DNA from: a virus
Lineage: Duplodnaviria > Heunggongvirae > Uroviricota > Caudoviricetes
Reading direction: 5' to 3' (one strand)
DNA length: 64,000 nt
Virus record (IMG/VR): IMGVR_UViG_3300031707_004017
The position numbers were made by a program, and so were the translations under genes. Under the pieces are notes generated by a model, which saw nothing but the letters and a program-made list of their open reading frames with translations, was not told where the DNA came from and made no database searches. Positions within the stretch are counted from its first letter, which is position 1, and each line of letters starts with the position of its first letter. Positions 8,391 through 48,529 of this stretch are shown here, in pieces.

Positions 8391-10178
8391 TCAATTTGTT
8401 ACAATGTCGCTAATATCATACGCATCGACATCAATACTGGTACCCGCATCAATGTATACATCTGTTACAAAATTTAAATTTACATCATATTTTGATATCT
8501 TTTTCCTATCTACATTATACGTTAACAAATCACCATTATAATCTTCTTTAAGCCATCTAACAACCTTTGATATTTTATTAGAAGCGCCAACACTTTCATA
8601 CGATGAATTAACTTTTATAATTCGTTGACCATTATTAAGATACAAATATCCGTTAGAATGATAAACCATTCCATAATATATTTGTGGTAATTCACCTATA
8701 ATTGATCTATTTATAAACATTGAAAAATTTGCTGACTCAGTGGTCTCATAAACATCTAAACCGGCACCCACAACTAATATTTTATTTACATCAAATCCTC
8801 TACAAATAGCAATCGGTTGTCCCTTTAAACCACCTATAGTGTGTAAATTATCACTTGTTATAATATTAACCAAATTGAAATCTAATTTCTGAATTCTAGT
8901 ATAATCGTTATTAAACACGCCAACAACATAAAGACAATCGCCTGCTCCAGAATCATGAATCATTATTCTATAAGGCCGACCAATTGTTGTAACAGTACTA
9001 TATTCAGACACGTATAGTAAACTCGAATTAACCAACTTAATAATACGACTATTCAACGAGTCACAAATATAAACATTATTTGAATTAACAGTAATACCTT
9101 GTGGAAATTTTAACATTGTATTATCCGAGCCTGCTTCGCCATACAATCCGAATTCAATACCCGTGTATATAGCGGGTATAACATTTGATTGCAACTGCTT
9201 TACGACGTGTCTCTTTGTTCGTTGTGCTACATATAGCATATTGACTGTTGTAGATCCCCAAACAGACAAAGTATCGCCACCCACCTCACCTGCCATTACA
9301 AAGGCAACACCATTATAACCCAATATTCTTGATATACCAAGAGCTTCAGGATAAGGTGCAGAACTAACAATAGCAAATGGATCCGTCGATGGGTCAAGAA
9401 GTGATATTGTCCAAGGTCCATACCTTGGGGAGGTTGCATACAATAAAGTGCCATCAAACCACATTTGATTCGAACTAATCGATCTATAATCAGTACCAGG
9501 AGCTTTATGCCCATTCGATCGATCTATAAGTCCTAAATTACCAGTTCCGGGATATCGTGAAATAAATAAATGGCCATAACCACCTCGTAATCCATTATTA
9601 GAAGAGGGATACGAACTTCCATTACTTCCTAAAGCTGGTGGAGGGCCATCTGATACCGATTGATAATATAAATATGATAAATTACCATAATAAAACGCAT
9701 TTATGGCATATGGCTGCGGTAAAAGATTGGGGGTGTTTCCTCTAACATCTATAGATCTACTTCCTCGGTAAGTAAAAGAAGATCCATCGAATGTTAGTAA
9801 ATATGCAGTTCCGGTTCCAGGTCCGCCACCACCAGAAACAGCGGATAGAAATAATATTCTGTCGCCAGGATTAGTAACTGCAAAATAGTTGGCACTACCA
9901 ACTACAGAGCGGGCAATCGACCCAACCTCTGCAAATAAAGACCCGTTGAATGTATACGCCTTGAAATATGATCCCTCAATACGGAAGAGGTAACTCCCAT
10001 TATAAAAAATTGTTGAACCACCCGGAACTAGATATTCTGCAACAAGATTCAGTGTAGAACCCGTCCACTGATAAGCATGCATACCTGTGCTATCATTAAT
10101 AATAAGATAACCTGAATTATCTATTGTTGCATTACCGAAAGGAATAGATGTTGTGCTATATAATTTTAAAAAGGCCAT
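8391..10178 (-). CDS. NHL-repeat beta-propeller protein (595 aa), receptor-binding/fibre paralog 1 with extra N-terminal domain
   Basis: NHL-like motif YICDSLNSRIIKL; internal YVAQRTKRHVVKQL matches N-termini of the two downstream paralogs; conserved C-terminal DVYIDAGTSIDVDAYDISDIV; SD GAGGA. Confidence 0.8.
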   Translation of the reverse strand: MAFLKLYSTTSIPFGNATIDNSGYLIINDSTGMHAYQWTGSTLNLVAEYLVPGGSTIFYNGSYLFRIEGSYFKAYTFNGSLFAEVGSIARSVVGSANYFAVTNPGDRILFLSAVSGGGGPGTGTAYLLTFDGSSFTYRGSRSIDVRGNTPNLLPQPYAINAFYYGNLSYLYYQSVSDGPPPALGSNGSSYPSSNNGLRGGYGHLFISRYPGTGNLGLIDRSNGHKAPGTDYRSISSNQMWFDGTLLYATSPRYGPWTISLLDPSTDPFAIVSSAPYPEALGISRILGYNGVAFVMAGEVGGDTLSVWGSTTVNMLYVAQRTKRHVVKQLQSNVIPAIYTGIEFGLYGEAGSDNTMLKFPQGITVNSNNVYICDSLNSRIIKLVNSSLLYVSEYSTVTTIGRPYRIMIHDSGAGDCLYVVGVFNNDYTRIQKLDFNLVNIITSDNLHTIGGLKGQPIAICRGFDVNKILVVGAGLDVYETTESANFSMFINRSIIGELPQIYYGMVYHSNGYLYLNNGQRIIKVNSSYESVGASNKISKVVRWLKEDYNGDLLTYNVDRKKISKYDVNLNFVTDVYIDAGTSIDVDAYDISDIVTN

Positions 10179-10180
10179 TT

Positions 10181-10723
10181 TTAATCCTCAAAGTGAAACT
10201 CTGGAACCTCGTATCTCTTTTCTTCAAATTTTATTGGATTACCTTCTGAATCATAGAGCCTTTTACTACTAAGCATATAATGCTCATAGCTATTAGGATC
10301 AAATACCTTTTGCAATCCCTGATCAAAACCAACTTCCAGTATTTTCTTTATGGTATCACAACAATTATTAGACCCTATCATACAATCCATGCAGGTTTCA
10401 GTAAAATATGGGAAACCAGACTCCATCTCTGGTATGTACTTTAGATACACATCTGTATCCAGGTACAGTAGATTAGGAATTGAAACTGCTTTATTAAATC
10501 GTATGGGATCTGTTATATTCATAAATGTCGATGGGCCAAAATCCAGATCCTCCACAGGTGTATCAAAATATTTCTGAACATCAGAATTGGTCATTAATGT
10601 AAATGTATGACCACCAGCAGCTGCTAGTTCACGAGCCCTGCTTATACACTCTACCCTTTTATCCCGTGCAGGATCAGGATATGCTTTGATAAAAAGATCT
10701 ATCATTAAAACATTTAGATTCAT
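10181..10723 (-). CDS. hypothetical protein (180 aa)
   Basis: ORF between NHL paralogs; contains YLDTDVY (DxD-like) but no confident family assignment. Confidence 0.55.
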   Translation of the reverse strand: MNLNVLMIDLFIKAYPDPARDKRVECISRARELAAAGGHTFTLMTNSDVQKYFDTPVEDLDFGPSTFMNITDPIRFNKAVSIPNLLYLDTDVYLKYIPEMESGFPYFTETCMDCMIGSNNCCDTIKKILEVGFDQGLQKVFDPNSYEHYMLSSKRLYDSEGNPIKFEEKRYEVPEFHFED

Positions 10724-12656: not shown

Positions 12657-13169
12657 TTACAATAAACCTTCGTCCATTAGCCTGTTCATAAAAGCTTCTC
12701 TATTAGTATACGTTTGAATGTCACCATCTTTATCGACAGTGTACTCTTCAAGAACAGGTTCGCCATCTTTTTCATCATAATTTGTTTTAATAGTGATGTA
12801 ACCATCATCTGTCTTGACAGAATCTTCTGTCAAATATTTTTTTGTCGATTGAATAATTGGTACAATTTGAAGAGCTGGTCCCGTCATCACATCAATCACC
12901 TCATCGACGACTTGCGCAATTTTACATTCGTCATCATCAGATGATTTTTTCTTTTCTGGTTTATAATGAGGTTGCGGCGACTTTTTCAACTTACCGCCCG
13001 GTCCCCACTTTGCACCTGGTTTCTGCTTAGCTAGCCACCATGACAAGGCCCACGGGTTTGTAATATTCTTATGTTTTTTCATAGCACGTGTTGTCCCAGA
13101 CCAATTTTTGGGCGACACTGCTTCTTTTAATATCAAATCTGCAATTTTATTAATATTTGATCCTAACAT
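12657..13169 (-). CDS. hypothetical Lys-rich protein (170 aa)
   Basis: ORF track only. Confidence 0.55.
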   Translation of the reverse strand: MLGSNINKIADLILKEAVSPKNWSGTTRAMKKHKNITNPWALSWWLAKQKPGAKWGPGGKLKKSPQPHYKPEKKKSSDDDECKIAQVVDEVIDVMTGPALQIVPIIQSTKKYLTEDSVKTDDGYITIKTNYDEKDGEPVLEEYTVDKDGDIQTYTNREAFMNRLMDEGLL

Positions 13170-14017
13170 GTCACCTCCTCTTTATTCATTGTATGATGAG
13201 ATTTATGATAATTTCTAGCTTTTTCTATGTATTCACTTAAATCTTTTTCCGTGATTATTTTAAATGTTAAATTGTTTTGTCTACAATATTCTTGTGCAGC
13301 TAAAAATTTTGCTTGATTTTCTTTACTAGCTACTCTGCTTAATGGTTTAATTTCTTCTAAAACACTTCCTACTAAAATATCAGGATAATACCATCGATTT
13401 TGTTCATTTATTGTATATTTAATTCTAATGCTATGCCTTTTAGTATAACATTGCTTTAAATCATCTAATTGCATAAATCTAGCTAATTCGTAAGAACTAT
13501 CATAAAAATGTCCGTAATAACATCCTTGAAAAAATCCTGTATATGGTTTCCATGTGCCGTCAATAAAAGATTTGAATAACCCATCTGAAATGTGTTGTAT
13601 TCTTTCTTCGCTAAATTGTGGCTTTGCTTTTAAAGTCTCACTAATTTGTCTTTTTGTTTCTTCAGTGTGTTTTACACCAGGTCTTCCTGTTAACGTTTCA
13701 CTTATTCTTTGTCTATTTTTCTCGTCTGACATTCTTAATTTTGCAGCGCAAGACAAACTACAAGTTTTATCATCTCGTTTACTATAAGTTGAAAACCATT
13801 CTTTACACCATGGACATTGCTTTTTATGTAATATTCTTGTTCTTTGACTGTCACCTACTTTTTTATTTCGTTCTTCAGTATAAAGTTTCTTTTTATACTC
13901 TGGATCAGACATTCGTGAATTTGCACCGCAGGAATTGCTACAAAATTTACGTTTTCTATATCGCCACGTCAAAAATGGTTTATTGCACCATTGACAATTT
14001 ATTTGAATTTTACTCAT
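13163..14017 (-). CDS. triple zinc-ribbon protein with C-terminal PD-(D/E)XK nuclease-like motif
   Basis: Three repeats of CxWCxKxF...KFCSxSCxAxxRMSD; C-terminal YYPDILVGSVLEEIKP fits PD...(D/E)xK. Confidence 0.6.
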   Translation of the reverse strand: MSKIQINCQWCNKPFLTWRYRKRKFCSNSCGANSRMSDPEYKKKLYTEERNKKVGDSQRTRILHKKQCPWCKEWFSTYSKRDDKTCSLSCAAKLRMSDEKNRQRISETLTGRPGVKHTEETKRQISETLKAKPQFSEERIQHISDGLFKSFIDGTWKPYTGFFQGCYYGHFYDSSYELARFMQLDDLKQCYTKRHSIRIKYTINEQNRWYYPDILVGSVLEEIKPLSRVASKENQAKFLAAQEYCRQNNLTFKIITEKDLSEYIEKARNYHKSHHTMNKEEVTC

Positions 14018-14182
14018 AAGACGCTAACACTTCATTAATAATATCTTCATCTTTTATTCGATTTTTAAATTGGTCTTTAACTAACTGCCGGTCTTTCTTG
14101 GGTAAATGAACGAACTGATGTTCGAGTTGATCCATCACTCCATAATCAATTCGTTCTATTAATGGTCGTAAGACATTCATAA

Positions 14183-21184: not shown

Positions 21185-21694
21185 TTATTGCAAATCATAC
21201 ACATATACATCTATACCGCTATCGTGTGAATGTGTCTCAATTAATGGTTCAATTTTATTCCAATCACCGCCAGCTAAACCGCAACCAATTCGTGGCATAT
21301 GAATCGTCAAACCTTTTGCCGTTGCAAATTTAAATGACTTAATTAAAGCTATATTTAGCATGTCGTATTGCAAATAAGTTTTTGTATTTAAATGCTGTTT
21401 GCGATAACCTTGCTGGGCGATCATATTTGCCACCCATATTTCTTTACCTTGTATTAAAGATACAGGTATAAATTGAACATTACCTAAAGCAAATACTTTA
21501 TCATAATTCTCTTGAACTATTCTATCAATCCTACCTTTTCGCCAATCTCGATAAGCTATTTCAGGATTTGTCCACTTATCAGATAATGCCAGCACAAATC
21601 CCGCACCCCAGGCGCCTTTATCGTTGCAAACGTGACATATAAGTGATTTATCTTTGACAGGTGTCGTCGCATCACCGACTAAATAATGTATCAT
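21185..21694 (-). CDS. macro-domain (ADP-ribose binding/hydrolase) protein, tentative
   Basis: LICHVCNDKGAWGAGFVLAL resembles macro VNAAN..GGGV segment; TIHMPRIGCGLAGGDW resembles IAFPxIGTGxxGG. Confidence 0.5.
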   Translation of the reverse strand: MIHYLVGDATTPVKDKSLICHVCNDKGAWGAGFVLALSDKWTNPEIAYRDWRKGRIDRIVQENYDKVFALGNVQFIPVSLIQGKEIWVANMIAQQGYRKQHLNTKTYLQYDMLNIALIKSFKFATAKGLTIHMPRIGCGLAGGDWNKIEPLIETHSHDSGIDVYVYDLQ

Positions 21695-21751
21695 AATTAT
21701 TCCTTTACAAAGAAAAAGCAGACATTAAAACAATGCCTGCTTTCCTTTGAT

Positions 21752-22564
21752 TTACTGAAAGAATGAATTGCTGGGTCCGATTTGAGTTTGACTTTTCCGT
21801 ATAATTGATTGACTTACGAGACCCATAGCTTTTCGAACTTCACTTGGCGAATTCTTCGCAGTCAACACGTTCGGAAAACCAATTAAACTAGCAATGGCTT
21901 CAAACTTTGCTTTGCGCCGCTGATCGTCATTTTGGTCATTATCAAAACCAACGTAAACCAAATAAAACATTTCTGATGTATGACAATCATCAGCCAATTT
22001 TTTGACCAAATCAGGCGCTTTATAATTCTGTGAATCATTGTCTTCACCGTCAGAAAAGGCCGCTATGATACACTTCGTCTGAATGCCGCCGTCCTTCAAT
22101 GTTTTAGCATAAGCCCTGATGCCTATTATAGCATCAACGACTGCATCGTAAAACCGTGTCGAATCACCTCTAGCCACATATTGGCTCCCGATTTTACCAA
22201 CGTCTGCTACCTTTTTGAAATCATAAAGAATTTTTTGAGCTGTTGAAAACGTTCTTGCACTAACAAGCATTGACCCTGCTTGTTTTGTCGCCTTCATTGC
22301 GTTGATGACAAGTTCATCATACGCTTCACGAACAACCATTTCATTAGATTTCATTGAAAAAGAATCATCCAAAAGAATCGATGATAATGTCACGCTATCT
22401 GTTTCAAGATCATCGACAGCCACACCTGTACAACCTAAGATGTTCGTATCATTTAAACCATTAATCATGATATTAGCAGCATCTGCGTTTATATCTCCGT
22501 CCTGCACTGCATTAGCAAACAAACTCTTGATACTGCCAACATTAACGGGATTCGTTGAACTCAT
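21752..22564 (-). CDS. vWA domain protein, TerY-like
   Basis: LLDDSFSM MIDAS motif, AAFSDGEDNDS; followed downstream by kinase and PP2C. Confidence 0.75.
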   Translation of the reverse strand: MSSTNPVNVGSIKSLFANAVQDGDINADAANIMINGLNDTNILGCTGVAVDDLETDSVTLSSILLDDSFSMKSNEMVVREAYDELVINAMKATKQAGSMLVSARTFSTAQKILYDFKKVADVGKIGSQYVARGDSTRFYDAVVDAIIGIRAYAKTLKDGGIQTKCIIAAFSDGEDNDSQNYKAPDLVKKLADDCHTSEMFYLVYVGFDNDQNDDQRRKAKFEAIASLIGFPNVLTAKNSPSEVRKAMGLVSQSIIRKSQTQIGPSNSFFQ

Positions 22565-22577
22565 GTCTATCTCCTTG

Positions 22578-23537
22578 TTATAGTTTTAAATCAGTGCTTT
22601 TTACGATGTTAATGCCAGACGATCTAAATTTATCAAACTCCGCTAGAGTTATAGCTTCAAAATCAATTGCCGGATGTTTAACTGAACTCATGCAATCTTC
22701 AAGAACATAAATCTTCTTAAGAATTGCTTTGTCAGTGTTTATAAAGAAATTATGAATTTGTATAATTGATGCAAGAACACAGTGACTTTTTGCTTCGCCG
22801 GCAATTATAACTTTATCATACTTCATAAGCATATTTAAAAAGTCAGTATTAAACCCGCCTTGCTTATGCGTAGGTATCTTGACTTCCGGACTCAAGATAC
22901 CATACATTTCTGTTTGAGGAATTTGACCCTTTTGTAAAAAATTCAACTGCGACTTTCTTGCGAATGCATGAAATGCTAAAACTTCAAACAGCGCCGGATC
23001 CATAGCTTGCCCAAGAGTGCCAAGGAGCGTATGGTACGTCCATATACAAAGCGGCTTATTTGCTTGCTGTAATAATTTTTCTGTGTAATCAATGCTAGCT
23101 ATTGGATCGATCGTCGGTCGAATTTCACCATCGTTAATACTCTTCGTTAATGCATGTCTATTTTTCGGTGTGTCCTTATACACTTCTGTAAAATATGCCG
23201 GTTTTTCACCTGTCTGTAATTGCCACCATGACCGAAAGAAAATCTGGAACAATAAATGCGAATCCAAAGATCCAAAAATCGCAGTTATTTTTTCCAAATT
23301 ATTAAAGATGAAATCAACGACTCGTCGAATGTCGTCCAATGATCCAGGCACAGATAATGAACCATTTTCGTGACAAAAATCAATTTGCATATCAATAAGT
23401 AGCAATGCCACTCTTGACCCCGCCTTGTCATTCGCAGATGCCGGTATTTGTAGCCCATCAGCCTCTTTCTCGACATCAGCAAGCCTCGGCAAATACAATG
23501 TTCCGACCTTATTTGAATCATAAAACGATGGCTTCAT
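22578..23537 (-). CDS. isochorismatase-family cysteine hydrolase, nicotinamidase (PncA)-like
   Basis: RVALLLIDMQIDFC (cf. PncA ..D.QNDFC) and downstream GEAKSHCVLAS putative nucleophile Cys; N-terminal extension of ~40 aa. Confidence 0.6.
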   Translation of the reverse strand: MKPSFYDSNKVGTLYLPRLADVEKEADGLQIPASANDKAGSRVALLLIDMQIDFCHENGSLSVPGSLDDIRRVVDFIFNNLEKITAIFGSLDSHLLFQIFFRSWWQLQTGEKPAYFTEVYKDTPKNRHALTKSINDGEIRPTIDPIASIDYTEKLLQQANKPLCIWTYHTLLGTLGQAMDPALFEVLAFHAFARKSQLNFLQKGQIPQTEMYGILSPEVKIPTHKQGGFNTDFLNMLMKYDKVIIAGEAKSHCVLASIIQIHNFFINTDKAILKKIYVLEDCMSSVKHPAIDFEAITLAEFDKFRSSGINIVKSTDLKL

Positions 23538-23547
23538 CTCGACCTCC

Positions 23548-25425
23548 TTATTTTGATTGTGTAAGTGTTAAATAGCAAATTTTATTTGTAGAAATTGCTA
23601 ATAAGCCTTGCTTATAAATCTGCAAACTTTGATCGCTATTAACAAATTCAGCCGTCGATGACTTTAATGACAATGAACCATGCCGCTCAATAACAATACC
23701 TGCATCAGTGGGATGAATTATAGCCGATCCAACTAACTGTTTACCATGAATATTTTTTAACAAATCAGAATTGATAGATTCTTCAGTTTTTTTCTCAAGT
23801 ATTTTTGCTTTATCGTTAATTATATGCCAGTGTGAATAAGTACGACCATTATATAAACTTTTTCGTAAAAGTATTACGTTGTCAATTGACATGCACACAT
23901 CAATATCAATGATTTGACCTTTAAGTTCATCCATTTCAATTTCATACCGACCAATCGCAGAAAATACGAAATATTTATGTTGATTAAATATCTGGAACAT
24001 ACCTAAACCAAAATCATTTTTGCCGACCTGCAACCACGTTTGATTTTCCATCGCAGCCGTGACTTCTTCTTCAATGACTTGCCCATTAGTATATTGTCCC
24101 TTCATAATCATATTAGTTGTTAATCGATACAAATAATTACTACTACAAGAAAACACTGGTTCATTATGAAAACTCAACGTGGTCAACTTTGCTATTAAAA
24201 CAACATTGCTGTCTTTTACATCCATAATAAGTAAATCACTATCTTGATTGATCACTAAACAAGACGGTAAAAAATAATCGTACTTAAATTGTGGTTCAAT
24301 CCCTTTCCACAAAAGAAATGACTGCTTAAATTTTTCAGTAATTGAAACGAACCTTGTCTCGCCATCCTCATAACTTATTATGATAATTTTATCATTGATA
24401 ACTTTTGAAAATAAAATTACGCCTTTAGTTTCGTATATCATAATGATATCACATTTTTCTCTATCTATATGTTTTGGTGATATAATACTAGTTAAATCTA
24501 CGACTTGTTGTGGCGCAGTTTTTTGACACTGTGGACATTTCGATCTTGTCTTAGAGAAATAAGTATTACAAGAAGCACATTTATTAAATGTCCCTATTAG
24601 TTCTTGCAAAGACTGCACCGGTAAATTGCTTCTCTCACCCTTACAAAAAATGTTCGAAAAATAATGCAACAAATCGTCGCTTAACGTTTCAGGATGCAAT
24701 GCTATTTTTGGATATACGACTTCTTTTTCTAAAACCCAAACTTTTTTCTGAGCTCGTCGTATCATAGTATTGAACGTCTTATGAGTCCCACCATAAGGAT
24801 GCACAAACAACAAGCTTTTAAAAAGCATGACAGCAAAAGCGTACCAATCAGACTCTATCGTAAAAGACGGCTTTCTTGTTAAATCTACACCGTATAATGT
24901 CGGATCAATAAATGAATCTGTGCCTACAAAACACGGATACCGACCAAATTGAAACGAATCCACATCGATGTAATAAACTGATGAATCATTTTCGACAAAT
25001 AATTTATTGACATCGTTCAAATCGCCGACAATGACATTACTACTATTAATAGCGTCAAGCAGCAATTTAGAGTTAGAAAAGATTTGTATTACGTCATTAG
25101 TCGTAATTTGATGTTGATTTCGATATTTAATATTAGATAAATCGATAAACGACACAGTCCTTGGTGCTATAGCCATCGCAAAACCATTAATTTTACCCGC
25201 TGTATCGGTCACGACATCTATCGGCGCTAAAACATTCGGCGGTAAACTAAAGCCGCACTTTAAAAAAGCTTGCAACTTTTGCGCTCGCTCAAGAGTTGGA
25301 TCATGATAAATTTTAAATGCAATATTGTTATTATATTTAACAACATTAGCCTCGCCACCACTGCCAAGCACATGTTTCGTATCAATGTCAATTATTTTGT
25401 TCTGGTAAACTATTCGCATTTTCAA
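23548..25425 (-). CDS. protein kinase-like protein with Zn-ribbon (625 aa)
   Basis: Gly-rich loop LGSGGEANVV, AFKIY lysine, VIVGDLNDVNKL catalytic-loop-like, IDVDSFQFG DFG-like; CASCNTYFSKTRSKCPQCQK zinc ribbon. Confidence 0.6.
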   Translation of the reverse strand: MKMRIVYQNKIIDIDTKHVLGSGGEANVVKYNNNIAFKIYHDPTLERAQKLQAFLKCGFSLPPNVLAPIDVVTDTAGKINGFAMAIAPRTVSFIDLSNIKYRNQHQITTNDVIQIFSNSKLLLDAINSSNVIVGDLNDVNKLFVENDSSVYYIDVDSFQFGRYPCFVGTDSFIDPTLYGVDLTRKPSFTIESDWYAFAVMLFKSLLFVHPYGGTHKTFNTMIRRAQKKVWVLEKEVVYPKIALHPETLSDDLLHYFSNIFCKGERSNLPVQSLQELIGTFNKCASCNTYFSKTRSKCPQCQKTAPQQVVDLTSIISPKHIDREKCDIIMIYETKGVILFSKVINDKIIIISYEDGETRFVSITEKFKQSFLLWKGIEPQFKYDYFLPSCLVINQDSDLLIMDVKDSNVVLIAKLTTLSFHNEPVFSCSSNYLYRLTTNMIMKGQYTNGQVIEEEVTAAMENQTWLQVGKNDFGLGMFQIFNQHKYFVFSAIGRYEIEMDELKGQIIDIDVCMSIDNVILLRKSLYNGRTYSHWHIINDKAKILEKKTEESINSDLLKNIHGKQLVGSAIIHPTDAGIVIERHGSLSLKSSTAEFVNSDQSLQIYKQGLLAISTNKICYLTLTQSK

Positions 25426-26200
25426 TCACCTTTTCAAAAACGATGCAAGATGCATCATCATAAAATATTTTTCTGTCTGACCAAACGTTAAATTTCCTCT
25501 GCAATCCGCGTTTCTTAGTCCCGTAAAGTTCGCTCGTTAATTGTCGCTCGACTAAAGGTATTAAACCATCAGAACCAATGGCAATCTTATTTACAACTTT
25601 TATATCATACATTGATATTTGTAAGCCTTGTAACTTTGTCGGTTGATTTACTAACGCTTGTCTTGGAACATTGTCATACATTAAATAATGCGGGCCACCG
25701 TCTTGATGAATTATTGTCGCATTGTCATCAATAATTATCACGCCATCTCCGCAATGACCAATAATAATATAATCGCTCAAAACAATACCGAAAATAAACG
25801 TCGTCAATAAATATTCATCGATAAATTTAATTTGGTCTTGAATGTCGTCAATTCGCAGACCACGTAATAAATCATTAATAAATTTATAGCTTGTTGGTTC
25901 AATGATTCCTTTAACGACATTACTAATGATCTGTTGAGACGTATTAGCTGTGAACGCATCAACGTCTTCTTTAAACGGTGAATAATAATCGTCCAACGCC
26001 CCTAAAGATAAATTATTAAGAATAAGATTACCAAATAAACACGCACCAACCTCAGTAAATTGTCCACTGCCACAACCGTCACAAATTATACCATAAACAT
26101 GTTGTTTATCTATTAATGTCGCACAAAAATCTTGTTTATTTGTTTTAAACAATACATGATCGCGACCAATTATCATAGCCTTGTTAACGTTCCACATCAT
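25388..26200 (-). CDS. PP2C-family Ser/Thr protein phosphatase
   Basis: ICDGCGSG, IIIGHCGDGVIII, IAIGSDGL metal-binding Asp motifs; overlaps kinase gene by 38 nt (translational coupling). Confidence 0.65.
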   Translation of the reverse strand: MMWNVNKAMIIGRDHVLFKTNKQDFCATLIDKQHVYGIICDGCGSGQFTEVGACLFGNLILNNLSLGALDDYYSPFKEDVDAFTANTSQQIISNVVKGIIEPTSYKFINDLLRGLRIDDIQDQIKFIDEYLLTTFIFGIVLSDYIIIGHCGDGVIIIDDNATIIHQDGGPHYLMYDNVPRQALVNQPTKLQGLQISMYDIKVVNKIAIGSDGLIPLVERQLTSELYGTKKRGLQRKFNVWSDRKIFYDDASCIVFEKVIENANSLPEQNN

Positions 26201-26862
26201 TTAATTATTTCTCCCGTTTTATACGACCAAAATAATAAATCTAGCTCATCAAAATCTAATTCGTATCGTTTTGCAAAATCTTTCATAATGAGTTCAACTT
26301 TGCAATATTCTTTTTTATTACATGGTTTTTGCACGTTACAACCTAATAAATTAAGCATCGAAATTATGTGCTTATCAAGAATCGCAAAGCCCTTGAACCC
26401 GATGTTTCTAAGAAAATGACTACTTTCTTTGTAACCAATACCACATAAAAATTTAGCAAGAAATTCGCGTAAAGCAAGACCATCGTATTGATCAAATATT
26501 TTTCGTACATCAAGATCACAATAACCTTTTAAAAAATGTCGTGTTCTAACAATGTAATTAGCCCTTGACCTCGGAAATCTATACACGCCTTTTAAGCACG
26601 TCGATATATCTTTTTCATTGCCTAAAAACAACGTGTCGTCATCTATAACACTAACAGCTTTCATCGCCATTTTAGCGCTAGCGTTAGCTGTCAAAATACA
26701 AAAGATTAATTCTTGAAATAATTGTTTAGATGAACCTTTACCTATAACTTGAAATTCATTCAATCGTTTTTGAATCGCAGATTCTACACTAACATAATAC
26801 TGCCTCAAGTCATTAACTGTAGCAATTGTCACGGCATTATCGACTTTAATAATTTCAATCAT
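26197..26862 (-). CDS. ogg: 8-oxoguanine DNA glycosylase/AP lyase, archaeal Ogg2-type (HhH-GPD)
   Basis: LFQELIFCILTANASAKMAMKA and GIGYKESSHFLRNIGFKGFAILDKHI (HhH with catalytic Lys and Asp). Confidence 0.75.
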   Translation of the reverse strand: MIEIIKVDNAVTIATVNDLRQYYVSVESAIQKRLNEFQVIGKGSSKQLFQELIFCILTANASAKMAMKAVSVIDDDTLFLGNEKDISTCLKGVYRFPRSRANYIVRTRHFLKGYCDLDVRKIFDQYDGLALREFLAKFLCGIGYKESSHFLRNIGFKGFAILDKHIISMLNLLGCNVQKPCNKKEYCKVELIMKDFAKRYELDFDELDLLFWSYKTGEIIK

Positions 26863-27743
26863 TTACTTATCGGCCAATGTCGTTTAAAATTTATTTTTTT
26901 AAACAGCGCTGTCCGTGAAATACTTATCGGCCAATGTCGTTTAAAATTTGCCTTTAAATATCGTTGAACAACCGGATGATCTTTTAAGCGATCTCGTTGT
27001 TCAGTTATAGCATCAATATTTGTTAAGTAATTATTTTCCGTCATAATCCAGCATTTTAATATTTTATCAACATCATCATAAGTCGGAGCGCCTAATTGAT
27101 CTAAATCGCTATTGCTTACTCCTAATCCGTCAGTTGGAACAGCTTCAATACATAATTTAAGAGATTCAATTTGTTTCTCGTCTAGCAACATATTTTTTAA
27201 TATAAATTTAGAAATTTCATAAACTTCAGTTTTCCAAAGATGTTGAATCATACCATAATCGCCCCAATCACCCATGATTGTACTAAATCCTAGTAAAAAC
27301 TCCGTATAATTATCCGTGCTAAGAACCATACCTTTATTTTGAGCCGCAAGATCATACAATTTAATCATTCGCATTCGAGCTTTCAAATTACCTAATCGAA
27401 TCTTAAAAGCTACATCACTATGATCAGCTGTATCATAGTCATCTACTATTATAGGAGCAATTTGACGATAAGTATGTGATAAATCAATTTCTTTAAAATC
27501 ATGGCAAAAAGCTACTCCTGTCAAAGCTGCCCGCTGTATTTCGACTTCTGAATTTGTCGCAATAGGTATGCTACGACCTATAAGCGAAATATGTAAACAA
27601 TCGCAAACTGGTCGTGCTAATGCTGCGCAAAGCGTGCTATCAATTCCGCCAGAAATACCGATAATAAGACTTTGAAGTTTATGCTCAATTATATAGTCTT
27701 CAAGTTCTTGCCGAATATTCTTGACAACATCTTTGCAATTCAT
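26859..27743 (-). CDS. nadE: NH3-dependent NAD+ synthetase
   Basis: PP-loop IGISGGIDSTLCAAL ~35 aa from N-terminus; length 294 aa. Confidence 0.85.
   Translation of the reverse strand: MNCKDVVKNIRQELEDYIIEHKLQSLIIGISGGIDSTLCAALARPVCDCLHISLIGRSIPIATNSEVEIQRAALTGVAFCHDFKEIDLSHTYRQIAPIIVDDYDTADHSDVAFKIRLGNLKARMRMIKLYDLAAQNKGMVLSTDNYTEFLLGFSTIMGDWGDYGMIQHLWKTEVYEISKFILKNMLLDEKQIESLKLCIEAVPTDGLGVSNSDLDQLGAPTYDDVDKILKCWIMTENNYLTNIDAITEQRDRLKDHPVVQRYLKANFKRHWPISISRTALFKKINFKRHWPISK
26864..26977. repeat. imperfect 57-bp tandem duplication (2 copies) at nadE 3' end / ogg start
   Basis: acttatcggccaatgtcgtttaaaattt at 26864-26891 and 26921-26948; encodes FKKINFKRHWPIS twice at NadE C-terminus. Confidence 0.7.
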
Positions 27744-27866
27744 AAAATCCTCCTATAAAGATAATTAATTAATCAATATGTTTTACGATGATTTGATCGT
27801 AATCACAATGATTCACAAAGTAAATAATTGTCTTATTATTTCTTAAATAAGTAATAGGAGATTGAA

Positions 27867-28613
27867 ATGTCGTTATATAACAATGCTAATGAATTATTAC
27901 ATGACGCTGTTGAAAAAGGCTTAATCAATCTTTTACAACCACGTGTAAAAATCGGTAACATAGAAATACAATTAAATAATAGCGTCATAAATGTATTGAA
28001 CCTTAATAAATGGATGGAATTCCTCAACTATGTGATTCAAAATTCTGATAATGAAGATGAGATAAACTATGCAACTCAGATATTAGAATCATTCAAGCAA
28101 CAATGTAACATTCAAACAGTCGAAAATGATAAATCATTAATTTCGACCGACGATGTTATAAAACTATCAACTGAACTTAATAATTGCAATACAGTCGATG
28201 ATATTTTTAAATTAATAGGTATCCAACCTCTTGTTAATCGTGTTCCGGAAAAGCTCTACAAGCGCATCGATGCCACAACAATCGCCAAAAGCGCAGAACT
28301 CAATGCAGTTGTACAAGCGGCCGTCAATAATAAAATACCGCTACATGTTGATAAAATATCACCACCATCGCTGACTATTCCAAATACTATTAAGTGGAAA
28401 CGACCTATAAAAATCGACAACAAATGTCGCTATTATGCTCATAATACATCATGGTACATTGAACGTCAAGATGCGTATAACCAATATGGTGGATTAAATT
28501 ATTACTACTCTCTATTTTCGCCCACATCAAAAGAGCGTGCTCGCTTTGACACTCTTAAAGATGCGAAGAAAAATTCTTTAATCGTCATTAAAAGTTTAGT
28601 TGATAATCGATAA
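27867..28613 (+). CDS. hypothetical protein (248 aa) carrying a GC-rich patch shared with gene at 48.6 kb
   Basis: SD GGAGA; segment NRVPEKLYKRIDATTIAKSAELNAVVQAAVNN shared with 48530..48883 product. Confidence 0.65.
   Translation: MSLYNNANELLHDAVEKGLINLLQPRVKIGNIEIQLNNSVINVLNLNKWMEFLNYVIQNSDNEDEINYATQILESFKQQCNIQTVENDKSLISTDDVIKLSTELNNCNTVDDIFKLIGIQPLVNRVPEKLYKRIDATTIAKSAELNAVVQAAVNNKIPLHVDKISPPSLTIPNTIKWKRPIKIDNKCRYYAHNTSWYIERQDAYNQYGGLNYYYSLFSPTSKERARFDTLKDAKKNSLIVIKSLVDNR
28238..28330. repeat. ~90-bp segment near-identical (inverted) to 48590..48680
   Basis: cgtgttccggaaaagctctacaagcgcatcgatgcc...atcgccaaaagcgcagaactcaatg present here and as reverse complement at ~48.6 kb. Confidence 0.8.
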
Positions 28614-28621
28614 TCTAGCAT

Positions 28622-28921
28622 TTGGAGGTACGTGTGTTTGAAGTGCAGAATAATATTAATTATAAAGTCTTCATTAACGCACAGAAAAAAGCAATTGAAG
28701 TGTCAAAATGGATAGAAGGTGAACGTATTAAATCTGATCCCGGCACGCGCTATATACTATTTTGGATACATGCATACGCAAAAGATTTTAAACAAGCATG
28801 GAACAGATCAAGATGCAAAAAATGTAAAAATGAATATTGCAGATATAAAAATGTTTCTAAATGTAACGATTTTTCACCTGATCCAGAACTACAACATGTT
28901 AACAAAGAAACTAATAATTGA
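28622..28921 (+). CDS. small Cys-rich protein (99 aa)
   Basis: RCKKCKNEYCRYKNVSKC; overlaps HPr start. Confidence 0.4.
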   Translation: MEVRVFEVQNNINYKVFINAQKKAIEVSKWIEGERIKSDPGTRYILFWIHAYAKDFKQAWNRSRCKKCKNEYCRYKNVSKCNDFSPDPELQHVNKETNN

Positions 28922-29165
28922 AAATGATCGAGGACTGCATGCTAGACCGTCTGCACTAATTGTTGAAAAAATATTGCCATTTAAATGTAATGTCAAAATC
29001 ACTTGCAACAAAGTCGAAGCAGATGCAAAAAGCGTATTGTCTTTATTATCATTAATTGCTCAAAAAGGATTTGAAGTTGAAATTGTCATTGATGGAGAAA
29101 ATGAAATAGAAGCAATGAAAGTAATGATTGATTTATTTCATAGCAAATTTAAAGAAGCCTACTAG
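28896..29165 (+). CDS. ptsH: phosphocarrier protein HPr (PTS)
   Basis: MLTKKLIIENDRGLHARPSALIV...ADAKSVLSLLSL: His15 in GLHARP and Ser46 in KS(V/I)L both at canonical positions; 89 aa; start chosen inside ORF 28719..29165 at in-frame Met 60. Confidence 0.85.
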   Translation: MLTKKLIIENDRGLHARPSALIVEKILPFKCNVKITCNKVEADAKSVLSLLSLIAQKGFEVEIVIDGENEIEAMKVMIDLFHSKFKEAY

Positions 29166-29688
29166 ATTTAAGTCTAATAAATAAAACTGACACAAGCGGA
29201 TCTTTCACTGTGGGTATTATATCACTTTCAAACCACATACACTTAGCTTTCTTTTCTAATTCTGATCCATCACCGGTCGCATTTTGCATTTCGAAATCTG
29301 TCAAATTTATTGAATACAAATAATAAACAGTATCAGATGATTTTGTCGCAAAACAAGTGCCAAGACTTAATAAATATTTAGATTGGACTTCGTATCCTGC
29401 TTCTTCTTTCAATTCTAAAATAGCAGTGTCTCTTGGATCGCCACCTTCATAACCACCAGTTATAGAACTTATTACTGGTTTAAATCCCCAACAAGGTGTC
29501 ACTTCATTTCGCAATAAATATTCTATTTTGTAATTTGAAAATCTATATGGCAATATTGAAATTATTTTACCATCACATCGCGTCTCATGAGAAAAAACAT
29601 AACCCTCAACCCCTTCTTCGGGCGCTACTAAATTTTTAAGTGATAACCATTTATTAAAAAATAATGTTTGGACATTCATAATCAACAA
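29149..29688 (-). CDS. Nudix-like hydrolase (diverged Nudix box)
   Basis: GGYEGGDPRDTAILELKEEAGYEV approximates Gx5Ex7REUxEExGU (R replaced by L). Confidence 0.5.
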   Translation of the reverse strand: MLIMNVQTLFFNKWLSLKNLVAPEEGVEGYVFSHETRCDGKIISILPYRFSNYKIEYLLRNEVTPCWGFKPVISSITGGYEGGDPRDTAILELKEEAGYEVQSKYLLSLGTCFATKSSDTVYYLYSINLTDFEMQNATGDGSELEKKAKCMWFESDIIPTVKDPLVSVLFIRLKSSRLL

Positions 29689-30014
29689 AAAGCCTCATCT
29701 AAATTATTAAGAAAAGCCTGCTCGTCTTTATAAATGCTAAGTACGCTTGTCAATCCGGTTAATTTAAATGTGTTTAAGATGTCTTCTTTTAACCCATAGA
29801 TACATATGTTTAATTTTGAATCTGCTTCAACTAAATAGCTAATCGCTGTACTGTCGACTGTGCTCACTTCAGACATGTCGAGTGCAATATTTGACCAACC
29901 TTCACCCATTAATTTCTTTATTCGTATTAATAAATGACTGATATTTGTCGCAAGTAACATGCCACTAACTTCTAATAGTATATACGTACTATTGTTACTT
30001 TCACGAATATCCAT
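29682..30014 (-). CDS. STAS-domain anti-sigma factor antagonist (SpoIIAA/RsbV-like)
   Basis: LDMSEVSTVDSTAISYL (cf. DLSGVSFMDSSGLGVL) and GLKEDILNTFKLTGLTSVLSIY. Confidence 0.7.
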   Translation of the reverse strand: MDIRESNNSTYILLEVSGMLLATNISHLLIRIKKLMGEGWSNIALDMSEVSTVDSTAISYLVEADSKLNICIYGLKEDILNTFKLTGLTSVLSIYKDEQAFLNNLDEAFC

Positions 30015-30083: not shown

Positions 30084-31724
30084 TCAAATATTAACGATTT
30101 TATTTCGTTTACTGATGATTAACGATGCTTGTTCACTACTTTCTGAGCCCAAAGCATTTGTAGCAACACATATGTAATAACCAACTAAATCATTGTTTAT
30201 ATTGCTCAATGTTAATGTTGTCGTCGTGACACCGCTCATCCTACTATTGTTCTGTAATGCTACTAAATTCGAACTATGACCGTGCGACTTGTACCATTGA
30301 TATGTCATCGCCGGATAACCTGCAAAAACGACATTAAATATCACAGTCTGTCCCTTTTCAGCAGCCTGATCTGCAGGTTGCGTGATTACGATTGGTCCTG
30401 AACTTACAATTAATGCTACAGTATCACTTGCGACAGTAGCAATACTATTGCTAACATCGACCCTATAAGATCCCATATCAGCAGCTGACGCTCTTGATAT
30501 TGCATATGTACTTGATGTTGCTCCACTAATAGGTGCACCGTTTTTAAACCATTGATAAGTCGGTATTGGATCACCGACAGCGACGACAATAAATGATACA
30601 TCTTCACCGGCATATACAGTCGCAGGTATCGGTTGGACTTCAATATGAGGAGCACTATTTATTATTAAAATAGCATCATCACTAGTTACAGATCCATAAT
30701 CATTTGATACAACTACAGTATATGTGGCTTGGTCACTTTTAACAGTATGTGCTATTTCGAACTCTGATGATGTTGCTCCACTGATATTGTGCCCGTTTTT
30801 CTTCCATTGATATAATAATGGTGGTGTACCATCAGCAGTAACACTAATTTCAGCAGGATCATCAATTTCAAGTGTTTGAAATGGTTCAGGCTGAACATCA
30901 ATGTTAGGAGCACGTGTTGGTGCAGCTGCTGACTGATAGGCACCTATATCAGTAGTAGTTCCCGAACGAGTCACACCGTTATAAGATGTTGTAGAGACAT
31001 AAGGATTAGCAGATGGACCTATACCTGCATCAAGACAAGGGCTACTTGCCTGTAAAGAAAAGTCCGTACCAAGTGTTGTAAAGAGAGGATCTGACAAAAC
31101 ATCATGTGCTCCACCAGAATATCCAGAATAATTGGTTGCTACATTATATACGCAATTGTAATCGAATGTCCCACCACGTTCAGGGTGCAATACATTGATG
31201 CCAACAGTTCCTGTTGCATTTGATCCATAAACGATATTATTAATAACAAAGTAGTCTCCCGGAGAATTTGGAGGACTTACTGAAATTCCAGTTGTTGAAC
31301 TTACTGTACCAACACTATGTATTATGTTATTTATCGCTTTAATTGCCGTTCCTACTTTAAAAAACATTCCATATTTTGGAGTATTTGTCAAGATACAATT
31401 TTCGACTTTTGAATTATTTCCAGTACAATAAACAACACCCAAATTAGTGTAATCAGTTCCAGGATACTCTATTTCACACCCTGAAATTACACCATTTTGT
31501 CCCAATAGTTGTAGCCCTTTATCTATGTTATTAATAACAATAAACATGATATTTTGTATTACTAATCCGGAAGCAGTAGCACCTAAACTTATTATAGTAG
31601 AAGTAATAGAATGGCTACATCTTATTGTCGGTTTGTTTGTGTTTCCTGCCCATGACCTTATCGTTATGTTAGAAATAAGTACGTTTAAGCTGAATTCCTC
31701 CATAACGATTCCATTATCCACCAC
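30084..31724 (-). CDS. beta-helix + triple Ig-like domain receptor-binding/fibre protein, main ORF (N-terminus lost to frameshift)
   Basis: Three I-set-like repeats (YQWKKNGHNISGATSSEFEI..., YQWFKNGAPISGATSSTYAI..., YQWYKSHGHSSNLVALQ...); beta-helix-like N-terminal part. Confidence 0.8.
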   Translation of the reverse strand: MVDNGIVMEEFSLNVLISNITIRSWAGNTNKPTIRCSHSITSTIISLGATASGLVIQNIMFIVINNIDKGLQLLGQNGVISGCEIEYPGTDYTNLGVVYCTGNNSKVENCILTNTPKYGMFFKVGTAIKAINNIIHSVGTVSSTTGISVSPPNSPGDYFVINNIVYGSNATGTVGINVLHPERGGTFDYNCVYNVATNYSGYSGGAHDVLSDPLFTTLGTDFSLQASSPCLDAGIGPSANPYVSTTSYNGVTRSGTTTDIGAYQSAAAPTRAPNIDVQPEPFQTLEIDDPAEISVTADGTPPLLYQWKKNGHNISGATSSEFEIAHTVKSDQATYTVVVSNDYGSVTSDDAILIINSAPHIEVQPIPATVYAGEDVSFIVVAVGDPIPTYQWFKNGAPISGATSSTYAISRASAADMGSYRVDVSNSIATVASDTVALIVSSGPIVITQPADQAAEKGQTVIFNVVFAGYPAMTYQWYKSHGHSSNLVALQNNSRMSGVTTTTLTLSNINNDLVGYYICVATNALGSESSEQASLIISKRNKIVNI

Positions 31725-42652: not shown

Positions 42653-42904
42653 ATGAATGCGCGCCAGATCAAGAAACTCATGTTAAATGAACTGGACATT
42701 CCCAGACACAAGATCGAGTATGTAATCTCTCGTCCAGTCCTCGTCCAGGGTTTATGGGGTTGCTTGGCTGCATACGGCGTCGAACACGATCGAGAAAATC
42801 ATGAATTGCTGGTCGAAATCGTGCAAGACAAGTTAAATGAACCGGATATTGAAAGAGAGTGGAGTGAACTCGAATATGAAACGTTTGTAAAATGGGGGTC
42901 GTAA
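42653..42904 (+). CDS. hypothetical protein (start MNARQIKK, SD GGAGG)
   Basis: Internal Met with SD inside ORF 42584..42904. Confidence 0.45.
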   Translation: MNARQIKKLMLNELDIPRHKIEYVISRPVLVQGLWGCLAAYGVEHDRENHELLVEIVQDKLNEPDIEREWSELEYETFVKWGS

Positions 42905-44025
42905 AAATGCCTAAGAAAAGCTTTTGGACATCGCAATCGCGTTACGGCACTTACGAGGGCGAGAAGGGAAATCCTGGACAATGGTCATCATCATTCGGCT
43001 TCACCTTCGAAAACTCCAACTCGGTGAAATCGATCATGGGAATGACTGCTTATTCGATACTCGACCTCAAACCCTCAGCCAGCGACGATGCCGTGCGCAA
43101 TGCCTTTCGTAAACTAGCAAAACGCTATCATCCCGATAAGGGTGGCAATCGAAACAAGTTTGAAGAAATCACGACTGCTTACGAGACCATTAAAAACATG
43201 CGAGGCACGTCGAACCATACTCGCTCATCGAGGGCCCAAAATATGCACGGCCCGACAGTCCAATCGGAGCTTATTGTCCCACAACTGCTCACTGAGATCG
43301 AAGAGTCTGAATTAGCGACGTATTTATCCGATGATAATTTCGCATGCCAAGAGAAAAAAGACGGCAAGCATTTGACGTTACAGATACTCGACGGCCAATT
43401 TATCGTGCGAAATAAAAAAGGAATCGCATCGAGTTGTATGCCGGAATTTGAACCTGCAATACGGTCAGTCGGCCTTGATTTGCTCATCGATGGCGAACAA
43501 ATCGGTACCACATTTTGGGCGTGGGACGTGCTCGAATATGCAGGACAAGATCTTCGTAGTGAGTCGTATTATTCGAGGTATCTTAAATTGTCTGGAATAA
43601 ATTTCGGACCCGAGATTCAAGTGCTTAAGTTAGTGACAGGGACAGATGCAAAAACTCGATTCTACAACGAGCTAAAAAATGCGAACAAAGAAGGAATCGT
43701 ATTCAAGAAACTAGTGGGGATATTTAGTCCGGGAAAAGGTTTAGACCAATTGAAATTCAAATTTTATACAGAGTGTTCTGTGATAGTAGCTGCAGGTCGT
43801 CCGGGAAAAGCGAGCATCGGAATGGAATTGATTGGTCAAAACGGACGCGAATTCGTGGGATATTGTTCATGTAATCGTCACCCACCGATTGGAAGCGTCG
43901 TAGAAATCAAATATTTGTATGCATATCCGGGCGGTTGCCTTTATCAGTCTAGTTTCAAAGAACCGCGTGATGATGTCTCAGTCGATGAATGTACGATTTC
44001 GCAATTGAAATATAAACCGCTTTGA
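42892..44025 (+). CDS. DnaJ J-domain fused to minimal ATP-dependent ligase-type nucleotidyltransferase
   Basis: J domain YSILDLKPSASDDAVRNAFRKLAKRYHPDKGG (HPD); ligase motifs I KKDGKH, III LLIDGEQ, IIIa FWAWDVL, IV EGIVFKK, V LKFKF. Confidence 0.75.
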   Translation: MGVVKMPKKSFWTSQSRYGTYEGEKGNPGQWSSSFGFTFENSNSVKSIMGMTAYSILDLKPSASDDAVRNAFRKLAKRYHPDKGGNRNKFEEITTAYETIKNMRGTSNHTRSSRAQNMHGPTVQSELIVPQLLTEIEESELATYLSDDNFACQEKKDGKHLTLQILDGQFIVRNKKGIASSCMPEFEPAIRSVGLDLLIDGEQIGTTFWAWDVLEYAGQDLRSESYYSRYLKLSGINFGPEIQVLKLVTGTDAKTRFYNELKNANKEGIVFKKLVGIFSPGKGLDQLKFKFYTECSVIVAAGRPGKASIGMELIGQNGREFVGYCSCNRHPPIGSVVEIKYLYAYPGGCLYQSSFKEPRDDVSVDECTISQLKYKPL

Positions 44026-46503: not shown

Positions 46504-46560
46504 CCGCGCCTCCTATATATTTAATCAAACTATTTTGCATAGATGGACCATTCTCATTGC

Positions 46561-47229: not shown

Positions 47230-47554
47230 TATATGACTGTTGACAATTCATTTCTTCGGCGACTTTTTTGTCGTATTCAATCTTGAGAGAAGCCAGTCGG
47301 TTTGGATGGTTCGCGATTTTCTGTGTGCATTCTTCGACTTCTCGCAGCGCTGAATATCTTGAGTCAGCGTAGACCGAGTAGCCGCCGGATGATTGTCCCC
47401 GACTGAGCGGGTCCGGAGGTTCTCTCACCAGCGTAAAATGTGCGCTGGAATATTTGATCCGAATCTCTGCTAGTTGCCGTTTAACAGCTTCTTTGTCCCA
47501 GCTGTAGATGCCGGTGAAGCTGAGTCCTTGTTCGTGTGCCTTTTGTTTTGTCAT
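47189..47554 (-). CDS. hypothetical protein (121 aa)
   Basis: ORF track. Confidence 0.5.
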   Translation of the reverse strand: MTKQKAHEQGLSFTGIYSWDKEAVKRQLAEIRIKYSSAHFTLVREPPDPLSRGQSSGGYSVYADSRYSALREVEECTQKIANHPNRLASLKIEYDKKVAEEMNCQQSYIERHANARSVLNA

Positions 47555-47754: not shown

Positions 47755-47796
47755 TTTCTTATCCTCCTTCTTAATAATATAATCAAGTAATCTGCA

Positions 47797-47975: not shown

Positions 47976-48029
47976 TAAAGATTTTAAACTAATCGGAGTG
48001 CTTTAGATACGTTTTAAATTCGATGGGGG

Positions 48030-48479: not shown

Positions 48480-48480
48480 A

Positions 48481-48511: not shown

Positions 48512-48529
48512 AACACCTTTTCTGGAGAA

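Follow-up and report, generated by a model that had tools for sequence, protein, structure and literature searches.

A phage-borne HPr conserved together with a small four-cysteine protein in large tailed-phage-like genomes

Does an HPr gene carried by a virus work with the regulatory genes found around it, or does it belong to a conserved unit of its own? A 64-kb stretch of viral DNA (IMG/VR record IMGVR_UViG_3300031707_004017; called the window below, with all coordinates given as window positions) raises this question. The plus-strand open reading frame (ORF) at 28896..29165 encodes an 89-residue homologue of HPr, the hub of bacterial carbon-status signalling, and the original prediction combined it with a nearby STAS-domain protein and a PP2C phosphatase. 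From gene order and alignments across related contigs, we conclude that the conserved unit is a two-gene cassette consisting of HPr and an overlapping small four-cysteine protein, and not HPr, STAS and PP2C together.

Judged by profiles and alignments, the window encodes a genuine, full-length HPr with both phosphorylation sites. The protein matches PF00381 (PTS-HPr) over residues 3-82 of 89 (E = 4e-22, 78.5 bits against a cut-off of 23) as well as TIGR01003 (E = 7e-23, 80.4 bits; cut-off 47.9), and aligns end to end with HPrs of solved structure, the best PDB match being 3le1 (E = 2.8e-13). The GLHARP motif occupies residues 13-18 and places His15 and Arg17 on the canonical columns of the solved HPrs, while A-K-S46-V-L aligns with K-S46-I-M of the Gram-positive HPrs. 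The identification of the gene as an HPr with His15 and Ser46 was thus borne out, both residues lying on homologous columns in the alignment to solved HPrs. Ser46 had further been read as a sign of HPrK/P, CcpA and a Firmicutes host. However, Ser46 is at least 90% conserved across HPr-family proteins, including E. coli HPr and NPr; being near-universal, also in organisms without HprK, it is not evidence for HprK/CcpA or for a Firmicutes host. The nearest HPrs in species genomes are those of Verrucomicrobia and Spirochaetes, at no more than 39% identity in a pattern-restricted scan, and this part of the claim found no support. The best PDB match is a Firmicutes HPr, though residue identity in that alignment is limited. 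The NPr equivalog NF008146 is matched at 56.8 bits (cut-off 119) and the Firmicutes equivalogs NF010352 and NF010354 at 48 bits (cut-offs 110-123), all below threshold, and the window HPr belongs to neither the NPr nor the Crh paralogue family.

The gene that overlaps the start of HPr (28634..28921, plus strand) encodes a small protein of 95 residues, an invariant partner of HPr on which the original prediction was silent. The pair occurs in ten lineages (the window, L008, L035/L046, L048, L002, L049/L050, L047, L039, L042 and L038); where gene coordinates exist, the two genes overlap by 4-26 nt in seven lineages and are separated by 2 nt in L039. In the window, the small-protein gene has a GTG start 5 nt after a GGAGG, and HPr, which has no Shine-Dalgarno sequence of its own, starts 26 nt inside the upstream gene. 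The overlap of the upstream stop with the HPr start, together with the missing Shine-Dalgarno sequence, fits translational coupling. Across lineages the small protein ranges from 76 to 99 residues, and the alignments show an invariant F-I-x-A...A-I...K-W-x-E-G-E...D-P-G signature and four cysteines spaced C-x2-C-x4-C-x7-C. It has no Pfam, NCBIfam, PHROG or PADLOC match, and in the PDB its profile finds only a borderline zinc-ribbon-like match, eL42 (E = 0.0075); the protein is probably zinc-binding.

The HPrs of the ten lineages share 35-54% identity with the window copy, and at this divergence they keep L6, G13, H15, A16, R17, P18, L21, S46, L48, L53, A55, G67, E70, F81 and F85 invariant. In the first five lineages compared, 12 of the 20 invariant columns fall in the interface helices. 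Furthermore, the paired HPrs form a 12-leaf clade among 113 sequences in a rough neighbour-joining tree, and a C-terminal F-x-E-A-Y motif is specific to this clade. None of the cellular HPr loci fetched has the small protein, nor does any of the other viral-contig HPr types (L004-L015, described below). In L039 the pair lies in another setting, that of nucleotide metabolism, beside an intein-containing ribonucleotide reductase (RNR), dUTPase and dCTP deaminase; its presence in this different neighbourhood argues that the pair moves as a unit.

Where do the relatives of this HPr lie, and how long has it been carried by phages? An exhaustive HMMER search of 1.84 billion representative proteins returned 3549 matches to HPr, none above 47% identity. 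The best full-length match (P0004, 47%) lies on a 102.8 kb phage-like contig, L002, which is syntenic with the window and shares with it NHL-repeat proteins, a VWA protein and several unknowns at 32-59% identity. L002 (GenBank JAUSEY010000306.1, 102,850 bp, assembly GCA_030650065.1) was deposited in a Nitrosarchaeum metagenome-assembled genome (MAG), a label that probably reflects mis-binning of a related phage contig; it also carries TnpB, T4 endonuclease V-like, Fapy glycosylase and radical-SAM genes. The HPr of the IMG/VR contig L008 is 53% identical to that of the window. Single-protein IMG/VR scans with HPr, the kinase described below and STAS, which require exact 8-mers, gave nothing; narrower alignments used as queries gave matches, and further relatives came from a search with the small protein (P0157-P0161), look-ups of P0015 and P0005, and a metagenome scan (L046-L051). 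HPr identities of 47-54%, set against 40-77% for the syntenic neighbours, amount to a similar divergence, and this pattern suggests an ancient residence of HPr in the phage lineage.

Across a collection of 50,697 phage records, the matches to HPr were unannotated fragments and assembly contigs, and the annotated ones were ordinary HPr/ptsO on Salmonella and Acinetobacter records. PHROGs contains no HPr family, and our literature searches found no report of a phage HPr; the statement that such proteins are rarely reported agrees with this, and the phage HPr looks essentially undescribed. Other, unrelated HPr homologues do occur on viral contigs. One type (L004-L007, on 21 contigs of an unrelated phage type encoding DnaB, DnaG, PolA, ThyX and an intein-containing UvrD) has a 102-residue HPr (10001..10309 of L004) with His15, Ser46 and a Lys-rich C-terminal tail, and no small four-cysteine partner; further homologues are on L009 and on the 466 kb contig L010. 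In L011-L015 (IMG/VR contigs of 59-146 kb; match at ~9995..10243), His15 is lost, I-T-G-R-K replacing L-H-A-R-P, and A-K-S46-I-L is kept. These would be Crh-like, serine-only phage HPrs.

What might the cassette do? The face formed by helix 1 and helix 2 of HPr is the surface used by its known partners, as in the EI-HPr, HPr-EIIA, HprK-HPr and CcpA-HPr complexes. The phage HPr keeps this whole face (HARPS-L in helix 1 and S46-x-L...L-x-A in helix 2), so it is likely to be charged by the Enzyme I (EI) of the host. On balance, we favour a model in which the phage HPr and its small partner plug into the host phosphoenolpyruvate (PEP)-EI-HPr relay, with the cassette as the functional unit and with STAS and the three-gene module of PP2C (described below) separate from it. 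During infection, host EI would likely charge the phage HPr on His15, and in a host with HprK/P, Ser46 may be phosphorylated as well. Acting together, HPr and the small protein would then divert or read the PEP-dependent phosphorelay of the host, with HPr serving either as a decoy or sink for signalling by the host phosphotransferase system (PTS) or as a phospho-dependent adaptor on a target specified by the small protein. Gene identities, conserved residues, the gene overlap and the pattern of co-occurrence are observed; that host enzymes phosphorylate the phage HPr, that the small protein binds it and that host regulation is affected is inference.

Several observations weigh against this model. 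In neither the window nor any flank was a gene for EI, EII or HprK seen. The operon consistently lies in a NAD-salvage gene island, and this constant placement could point to a metabolic role instead. L051 (9983..11183) is the sole case found of the small protein without HPr downstream; there it lies between adenylosuccinate synthetase-like and patatin-like phospholipase genes. The AlphaFold model of the small protein, built on a five-sequence alignment, is unusable (predicted local distance difference test score, pLDDT, 48), so that neither its fold nor a complex with HPr gains structural support. Finally, neither the window nor the 10 kb to its right yielded a capsid, portal or terminase gene, so the phage assignment rests on the relatives and on typical accessory genes.

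The retention by a viral HPr of both phospho-sites and of the binding face over deep divergence suggests that phages manipulate or exploit the PEP-dependent phosphorelay, a layer of host takeover that is absent from current phage protein catalogues, and the invariant small partner offers a concrete experimental handle on it. A more specific version, possible though doubtful, is an undescribed phage-specific takeover cassette in which HPr is charged through host PEP and EI and a zinc-binding partner passes the phospho-signal, or the phosphoryl group itself, to a target chosen by the phage. Such targets could be transcription or the adjacent NAD+-salvage enzymes. The cassette would then have been kept throughout a clade of large and huge phages, and phages would be tapping the PTS phosphorelay directly.

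The window HPr resembles cellular HPrs, such as that of Thermoanaerobacter tengcongensis (3le1) and other Firmicutes, in its length of 89 residues, its GLHARP with His15 and Arg17, its Lys45-Ser46 and its hydrophobic helix-2 face; it differs from them in being phage-borne, with no ptsI, EII or hprK nearby and with an overlapping four-cysteine gene upstream. We considered a phage-encoded HprK or EI and rejected it, as neither the window nor any flank showed one. NPr (PtsO) and Crh offer another likeness, being small, stand-alone HPr-fold proteins that are regulatory and do not serve sugar transport. In contrast to Crh, the window HPr keeps both His15 and Ser46, and a Crh-like loss of His15 is seen in the viral L011-L015.

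Could the genes around the operon reveal a different role? The ORF map of 21.7-31.7 kb shows three transcription units. A minus-strand unit runs NadE, Ogg, PP2C, kinase-like, isochorismatase/nicotinamidase-like, vWA and macrodomain-like, with neighbours overlapping or abutting; the plus-strand unit runs from a 248-residue protein through the small four-cysteine protein to HPr; and a second minus-strand unit, convergent on HPr, runs from an Ig/beta-helix protein through STAS to NUDIX. This setting makes it conceivable that HPr~P is a phosphoryl donor to, or regulator of, a NAD/ADP-ribose enzyme in a NAD+-salvage, counter-defence island, with the co-operonic NUDIX protein, the 248-residue protein or nicotinate phosphoribosyltransferase (NAPRTase) as candidate targets. 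NAPRTase uses a phosphohistidine intermediate. We regard such a metabolic role as unlikely. The HPr operon is indeed transcribed away from NadE in the window, and NAPRTase takes that place in L038 and L048; a NUDIX gene follows HPr on the same strand in L035 and L038; and macrodomain-like and nicotinamidase-like genes are nearby, with NAPRTase beyond the right end of the window (L044, 1..595). However, the pair also occurs without these neighbours, in L002 and, beside RNR, dUTPase and dCTP deaminase, in L039, and the adjacency may merely reflect a general island of accessory genes. Moreover, we know of no precedent for HPr in NAD metabolism.

The individual genes of this island are as follows. 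NadE, the NAD+ synthetase (26859..27743, minus strand), matches Pfam NAD_synthase (E = 1.8e-35), TIGR00552 above its cut-off and the PHROG NAD synthetase, and is divergent from the HPr operon. The 248-residue protein that opens the operon (27867..28613, plus strand) has two conserved domains joined by a variable linker, and neither it in Pfam nor its family profile in the PDB found a match; a homologue lies upstream of the small-protein/HPr pair in six of the eight lineages in which that side is visible. The divergent gap 5' of the operon contains, on the plus strand at 27721..27748, a sigma-70-like promoter match (TTGACA-16-TAAAAT, 11/12), the best of the region, although it is a consensus match only and the total of such sites is not above that of shuffled controls. 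The NUDIX hydrolase-like protein (29149..29679, minus strand) matches Pfam NUDIX exactly at the cut-off (E = 3.3e-4), and its gene is convergent with HPr, the two 3' ends sharing 17 nt; by BLASTP, the same-strand NUDIX homologues downstream of HPr in L035 and L038 are 77% and 60% identical to it. Several lineages thus have a protein of 200-250 residues 5' of the pair and a NUDIX hydrolase 3' of it. The isochorismatase/nicotinamidase-like protein (22578..23537, minus strand; Pfam Isochorismatase E = 1.3e-5, just below cut-off) lies between the vWA and kinase genes and is the best conserved of its module, at 72-77% identity in L008, L035 and L048. The macrodomain-like protein (21185..21694, minus strand) matches phrog_335 and, weakly, the DarG macrodomain; the 8-oxoguanine DNA glycosylase (Ogg-HhH; 26197..26862, minus strand; Pfam E = 8.5e-50, NF002305 above cut-off) is in one minus-strand operon with NadE, PP2C and the kinase; and the Ig/beta-helix protein (30084..31724, minus strand) is the upstream member of the STAS/NUDIX unit. 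The NAD+/ADP-ribose set as a whole (21185..29688) resembles Preiss-Handler-type salvage, possibly for counter-defence. NAD+ salvage or reconstitution by phages is reportedly known from NadV/NatV of vibriophage KVP40 and from the NARP pathways. The likeness to these is an HPr operon surrounded by genes for NadE and for nicotinamidase-like, NUDIX and macrodomain-like proteins, with a more distant NAPRTase on the contig; the differences are that HPr is not known to act in those pathways and that the enzyme set here is Preiss-Handler-like and not NARP1/NARP2.

Are HPr, STAS and PP2C nevertheless parts of one toolkit, which in a Firmicutes host would hijack PTS/CcpA signalling and sigma-factor partner switching? 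The three genes lie within 4.6 kb, and in Mycoplasma and Bacillus a PP2C phosphatase (PrpC) can remove the phosphate from HPr(Ser-P), which counts in favour of such a toolkit. The STAS protein itself, predicted 0.5 kb from HPr, is real: a single-domain protein of 110 residues (29682..30014, minus strand; Pfam STAS E = 4e-11), with its stop 2 nt from the NUDIX start and with Ser55 on the phospho-serine column of TM1442 and of the 'DS' motif of RsbV and SpoIIAA. Its retention of the phospho-serine, and a second STAS gene ~0.5 kb from HPr in L038 (Pfam 9.4e-7), also speak for a link. Yet the three genes are on three transcription units and both strands, and STAS adjoins HPr in only two of the five lineages in which that side is visible (the window and L038), with none in L002, L035 or L048. 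Furthermore, BLASTP detects no similarity between the two STAS proteins, and in L038 the phospho-site is occupied by Asn. The window STAS reaches 32 bits with TIGR00377, whose cut-off is 53, and had no relatives in a word-indexed search of 5.8 billion proteins. It is a lineage-specific accessory.

The partner-switching part of the toolkit lacks its other components. Pfam scans of the ~66 ORFs of the window found no HATPase_c/GHKL anti-sigma kinase and no sigma factor; a role of STAS in partner switching would call for kinases of the host. The window STAS is like the antagonists of the RsbV/RsbW/RsbU and SpoIIAA/AB/E systems in being single-domain, with D-S55-T as in RsbV; it differs in that the window has no GHKL kinase or sigma factor and in that the nearby PP2C is of another Pfam family and in another module. 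PP2C is co-conserved with a kinase and a vWA protein, not with STAS, and L035 and L048 have PP2C without STAS. In addition, Ser46 is not Firmicutes-specific and no Firmicutes affinity was found. Together, these observations make the toolkit quite unlikely: its modules separate across related contigs, and the window holds no anti-sigma kinase, sigma factor, EI or HprK. Keeping the modules apart also prevents STAS, PP2C and HPr from being misannotated as one system.

To what, then, does the PP2C belong? A PP2C had been predicted 3 kb from HPr, and it is indeed present (270 residues; 25388..26200, minus strand); its assignment to the SpoIIE/RsbU type did not hold, as the Pfam scan reported no such family and PF13672 (PP2C_2) alone matched (E = 1.3e-11). 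The conserved Asp/Gly motif residues D24, D41-G42, D211-G212 and D248-D249 do not vary among five homologues. At its 3' end the PP2C gene runs into the start of a gene for a Hanks-type Ser/Thr kinase of 625 residues (23548..25425, minus strand), which consists of a kinase domain (residues 1 to ~265), a zinc ribbon and a C-terminal domain of ~320 residues, and whose true start is probably the ATG at 25419. The kinase scores below the cut-off of Pfam Pkinase (E = 6.7e-4), and a profile of six homologues matches 43 PDB sequences (best E = 1.2e-4), all but a few of them serine/threonine protein kinases; the G-loop, Lys38, D135/N140, D154, D193 and R224 are invariant in the six. Immediately C-terminal to the kinase domain is a Cys4 zinc ribbon (C283-x2-C286...C297-x2-C300) that the window and L008 proteins share. 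The third member is a vWA-domain protein of 270 residues (21752..22564, minus strand), with a metal-ion-dependent adhesion site (MIDAS) motif that is invariant in its family (D66-x-S68-x-S70, T136, D172-G-x-D-N). Its vWA status was settled by scanning each family member against Pfam: three of six match VWA (best E = 1.2e-5), and the window copy itself does not. When this family was compared by hhalign with the Pfam-confirmed VWA family of the window, only the MIDAS motif aligned, at 0.8% probability; the single-sequence AlphaFold model was unusable (pLDDT 42), and PDB profile searches of the vWA family and of PP2C gave nothing informative.

The three genes are co-conserved in at least seven contigs, and the PP2C-kinase adjacency is kept in L031, L032, L033, L035 and L048. 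In the window, L008, L035 and L048, the triad and the nicotinamidase-like gene accompany HPr. The triad also travels without HPr nearby, in L032, L033 and L034, and recurs in huge phages of 220-595 kb; no HPr match was found in LR756511.1, LR745208.1 or LR756500.1, which have kinase and nicotinamidase-like homologues; conversely, HPr occurs without the triad in L002, L038, L039 and L049. By gene content, the PP2C thus belongs to a separate TerY-P-like triad, independent of HPr. A TerY-P triad is made up of a TerY-like vWA protein, a PP2C phosphatase and a Ser/Thr kinase that carries a zinc ribbon at its C-terminus, as defined where PMC10542128 summarises Anantharaman et al. (2012) and Gao et al. 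(2020). The window agrees with this in its PP2C_2 gene overlapping a Hanks-type kinase with a Cys4 ribbon and in a MIDAS-containing vWA gene two genes off. It differs in being phage-encoded, the described triads coming from cellular defence or tellurite-resistance loci; in the nicotinamidase-like gene inserted between vWA and kinase; and in the extra ~320-residue C-terminal domain of the kinase, absent from the PMC10542128 definition. In PADLOC, vWA and PP2C had no match, the kinase matched only PD-T4-6 weakly (E = 0.0032) and TerY-P was not matched. As the architecture fits and the PADLOC models fail, we call the module TerY-P-like and not a proven member. Assigning the PP2C to it shows that a module familiar from defence loci of bacteria is also present in huge phages.

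The reasoning so far takes the window to be phage DNA. Alternatively, HPr could be a host gene that entered through a chimeric assembly or through mis-binning, or the contig could be an island of a cell or plasmid; this would explain why no capsid, portal or terminase was seen, why one relative sits in a 'Nitrosarchaeum' MAG and why GC content steps at ~38 kb from ~0.33 to ~0.43 (~0.32-0.37 over 1-38 kb and ~0.40-0.46 over 38-52 kb). We consider this very unlikely, since the same gene order recurs in independent assemblies and samples, synteny extends across ten lineages with proportional divergence, no cellular HPr was found above 39-47% identity, and the window showed no rRNA, tRNA, other Rfam family or housekeeping gene. 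An identical HPr protein is recorded independently on a 107 kb JGI contig and a 20 kb Logan contig, and other window genes recur on a 100 kb ENA contig. Furthermore, the relatives are IMG/VR viral contigs, among them syntenic ones of 73 kb (L008/L031), and module homologues lie in curated huge-phage genomes: the kinase module is on contigs of 416 kb (L032, from IMG/VR), 231 kb and 223 kb, and kinase and nicotinamidase-like homologues are in three huge phages from GenBank, LR756511.1 (595 kb), LR745208.1 (485 kb) and LR756500.1 (462 kb).

The gene content of the window points the same way. Its PHROG matches include baseplate-wedge-like, Hoc/tail Ig, HNH, COOH-NH2 ligase and NAD synthetase families; a 1479-residue LamG/PKD protein matches baseplate-wedge PHROGs, and other ORFs of large-phage type are a phiEco32-type COOH-NH2 ligase with GATase and GGACT proteins, and DUF2793. 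Most window ORFs are orphans. Megablast of 20 kb against the 50,697 phage records gave no match, PDB profile searches of two structural-region proteins were uninformative, and a look-up beyond the left end of the window found no exact-sequence record elsewhere of a 1092-residue window protein. Together, strong though indirect evidence assigns the window to an uncultured phage whose genome is large, AT-rich and of tailed-phage type, with kin among the huge phages already published. Of 60 genes, 31 have a Shine-Dalgarno-like motif in front of them, a usage that indicates a bacterial host but does not tell which one.

That HPr is a gene merely carried along, neutral or in decay and playing no part in infection, as its missing Shine-Dalgarno sequence might hint, is scarcely credible, given an intact frame in ten lineages, catalytic and interface residues that are invariant at 35-54% identity, and the conserved overlap with the upstream gene, which implies translational coupling.

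Other features of the window lie outside these modules. The GC step at ~38000 may be a boundary between genome modules of different origin. At 58036..58364 (context 57100..59100), ~30 tandem copies of the 11-nt unit GCCAGATATTA, 92% matching, lie within ~2 kb that is poor in ORFs; read on the plus strand, the sequence to the left of the array is nearly without G and that to the right nearly without C. The GC skew flips sign here, and the region could be a replication origin, a terminus or a packaging region. An HNH ORF (13163..14017) lies between ORFs 12657..13169 and 14010..14180, both of which match one uninterrupted gene in L002/L003 (3769..4470), and the gene at 12657..14180 appears to have been split by a homing-endonuclease or intron-like insertion. 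The phiEco32-type COOH-NH2 ligase (49436..50695), a class-II glutamine amidotransferase (45580..46503) and a GGACT-family protein among the small ORFs give the region 45580..50695 a resemblance to peptide/amino-group ligation modules known from phages. Finally, the ORFs at 42892..44025 and 52811..53428 each match part of the adenylation domain of ATP-dependent DNA ligase, and one of the two is fused to an N-terminal DnaJ (J) domain.

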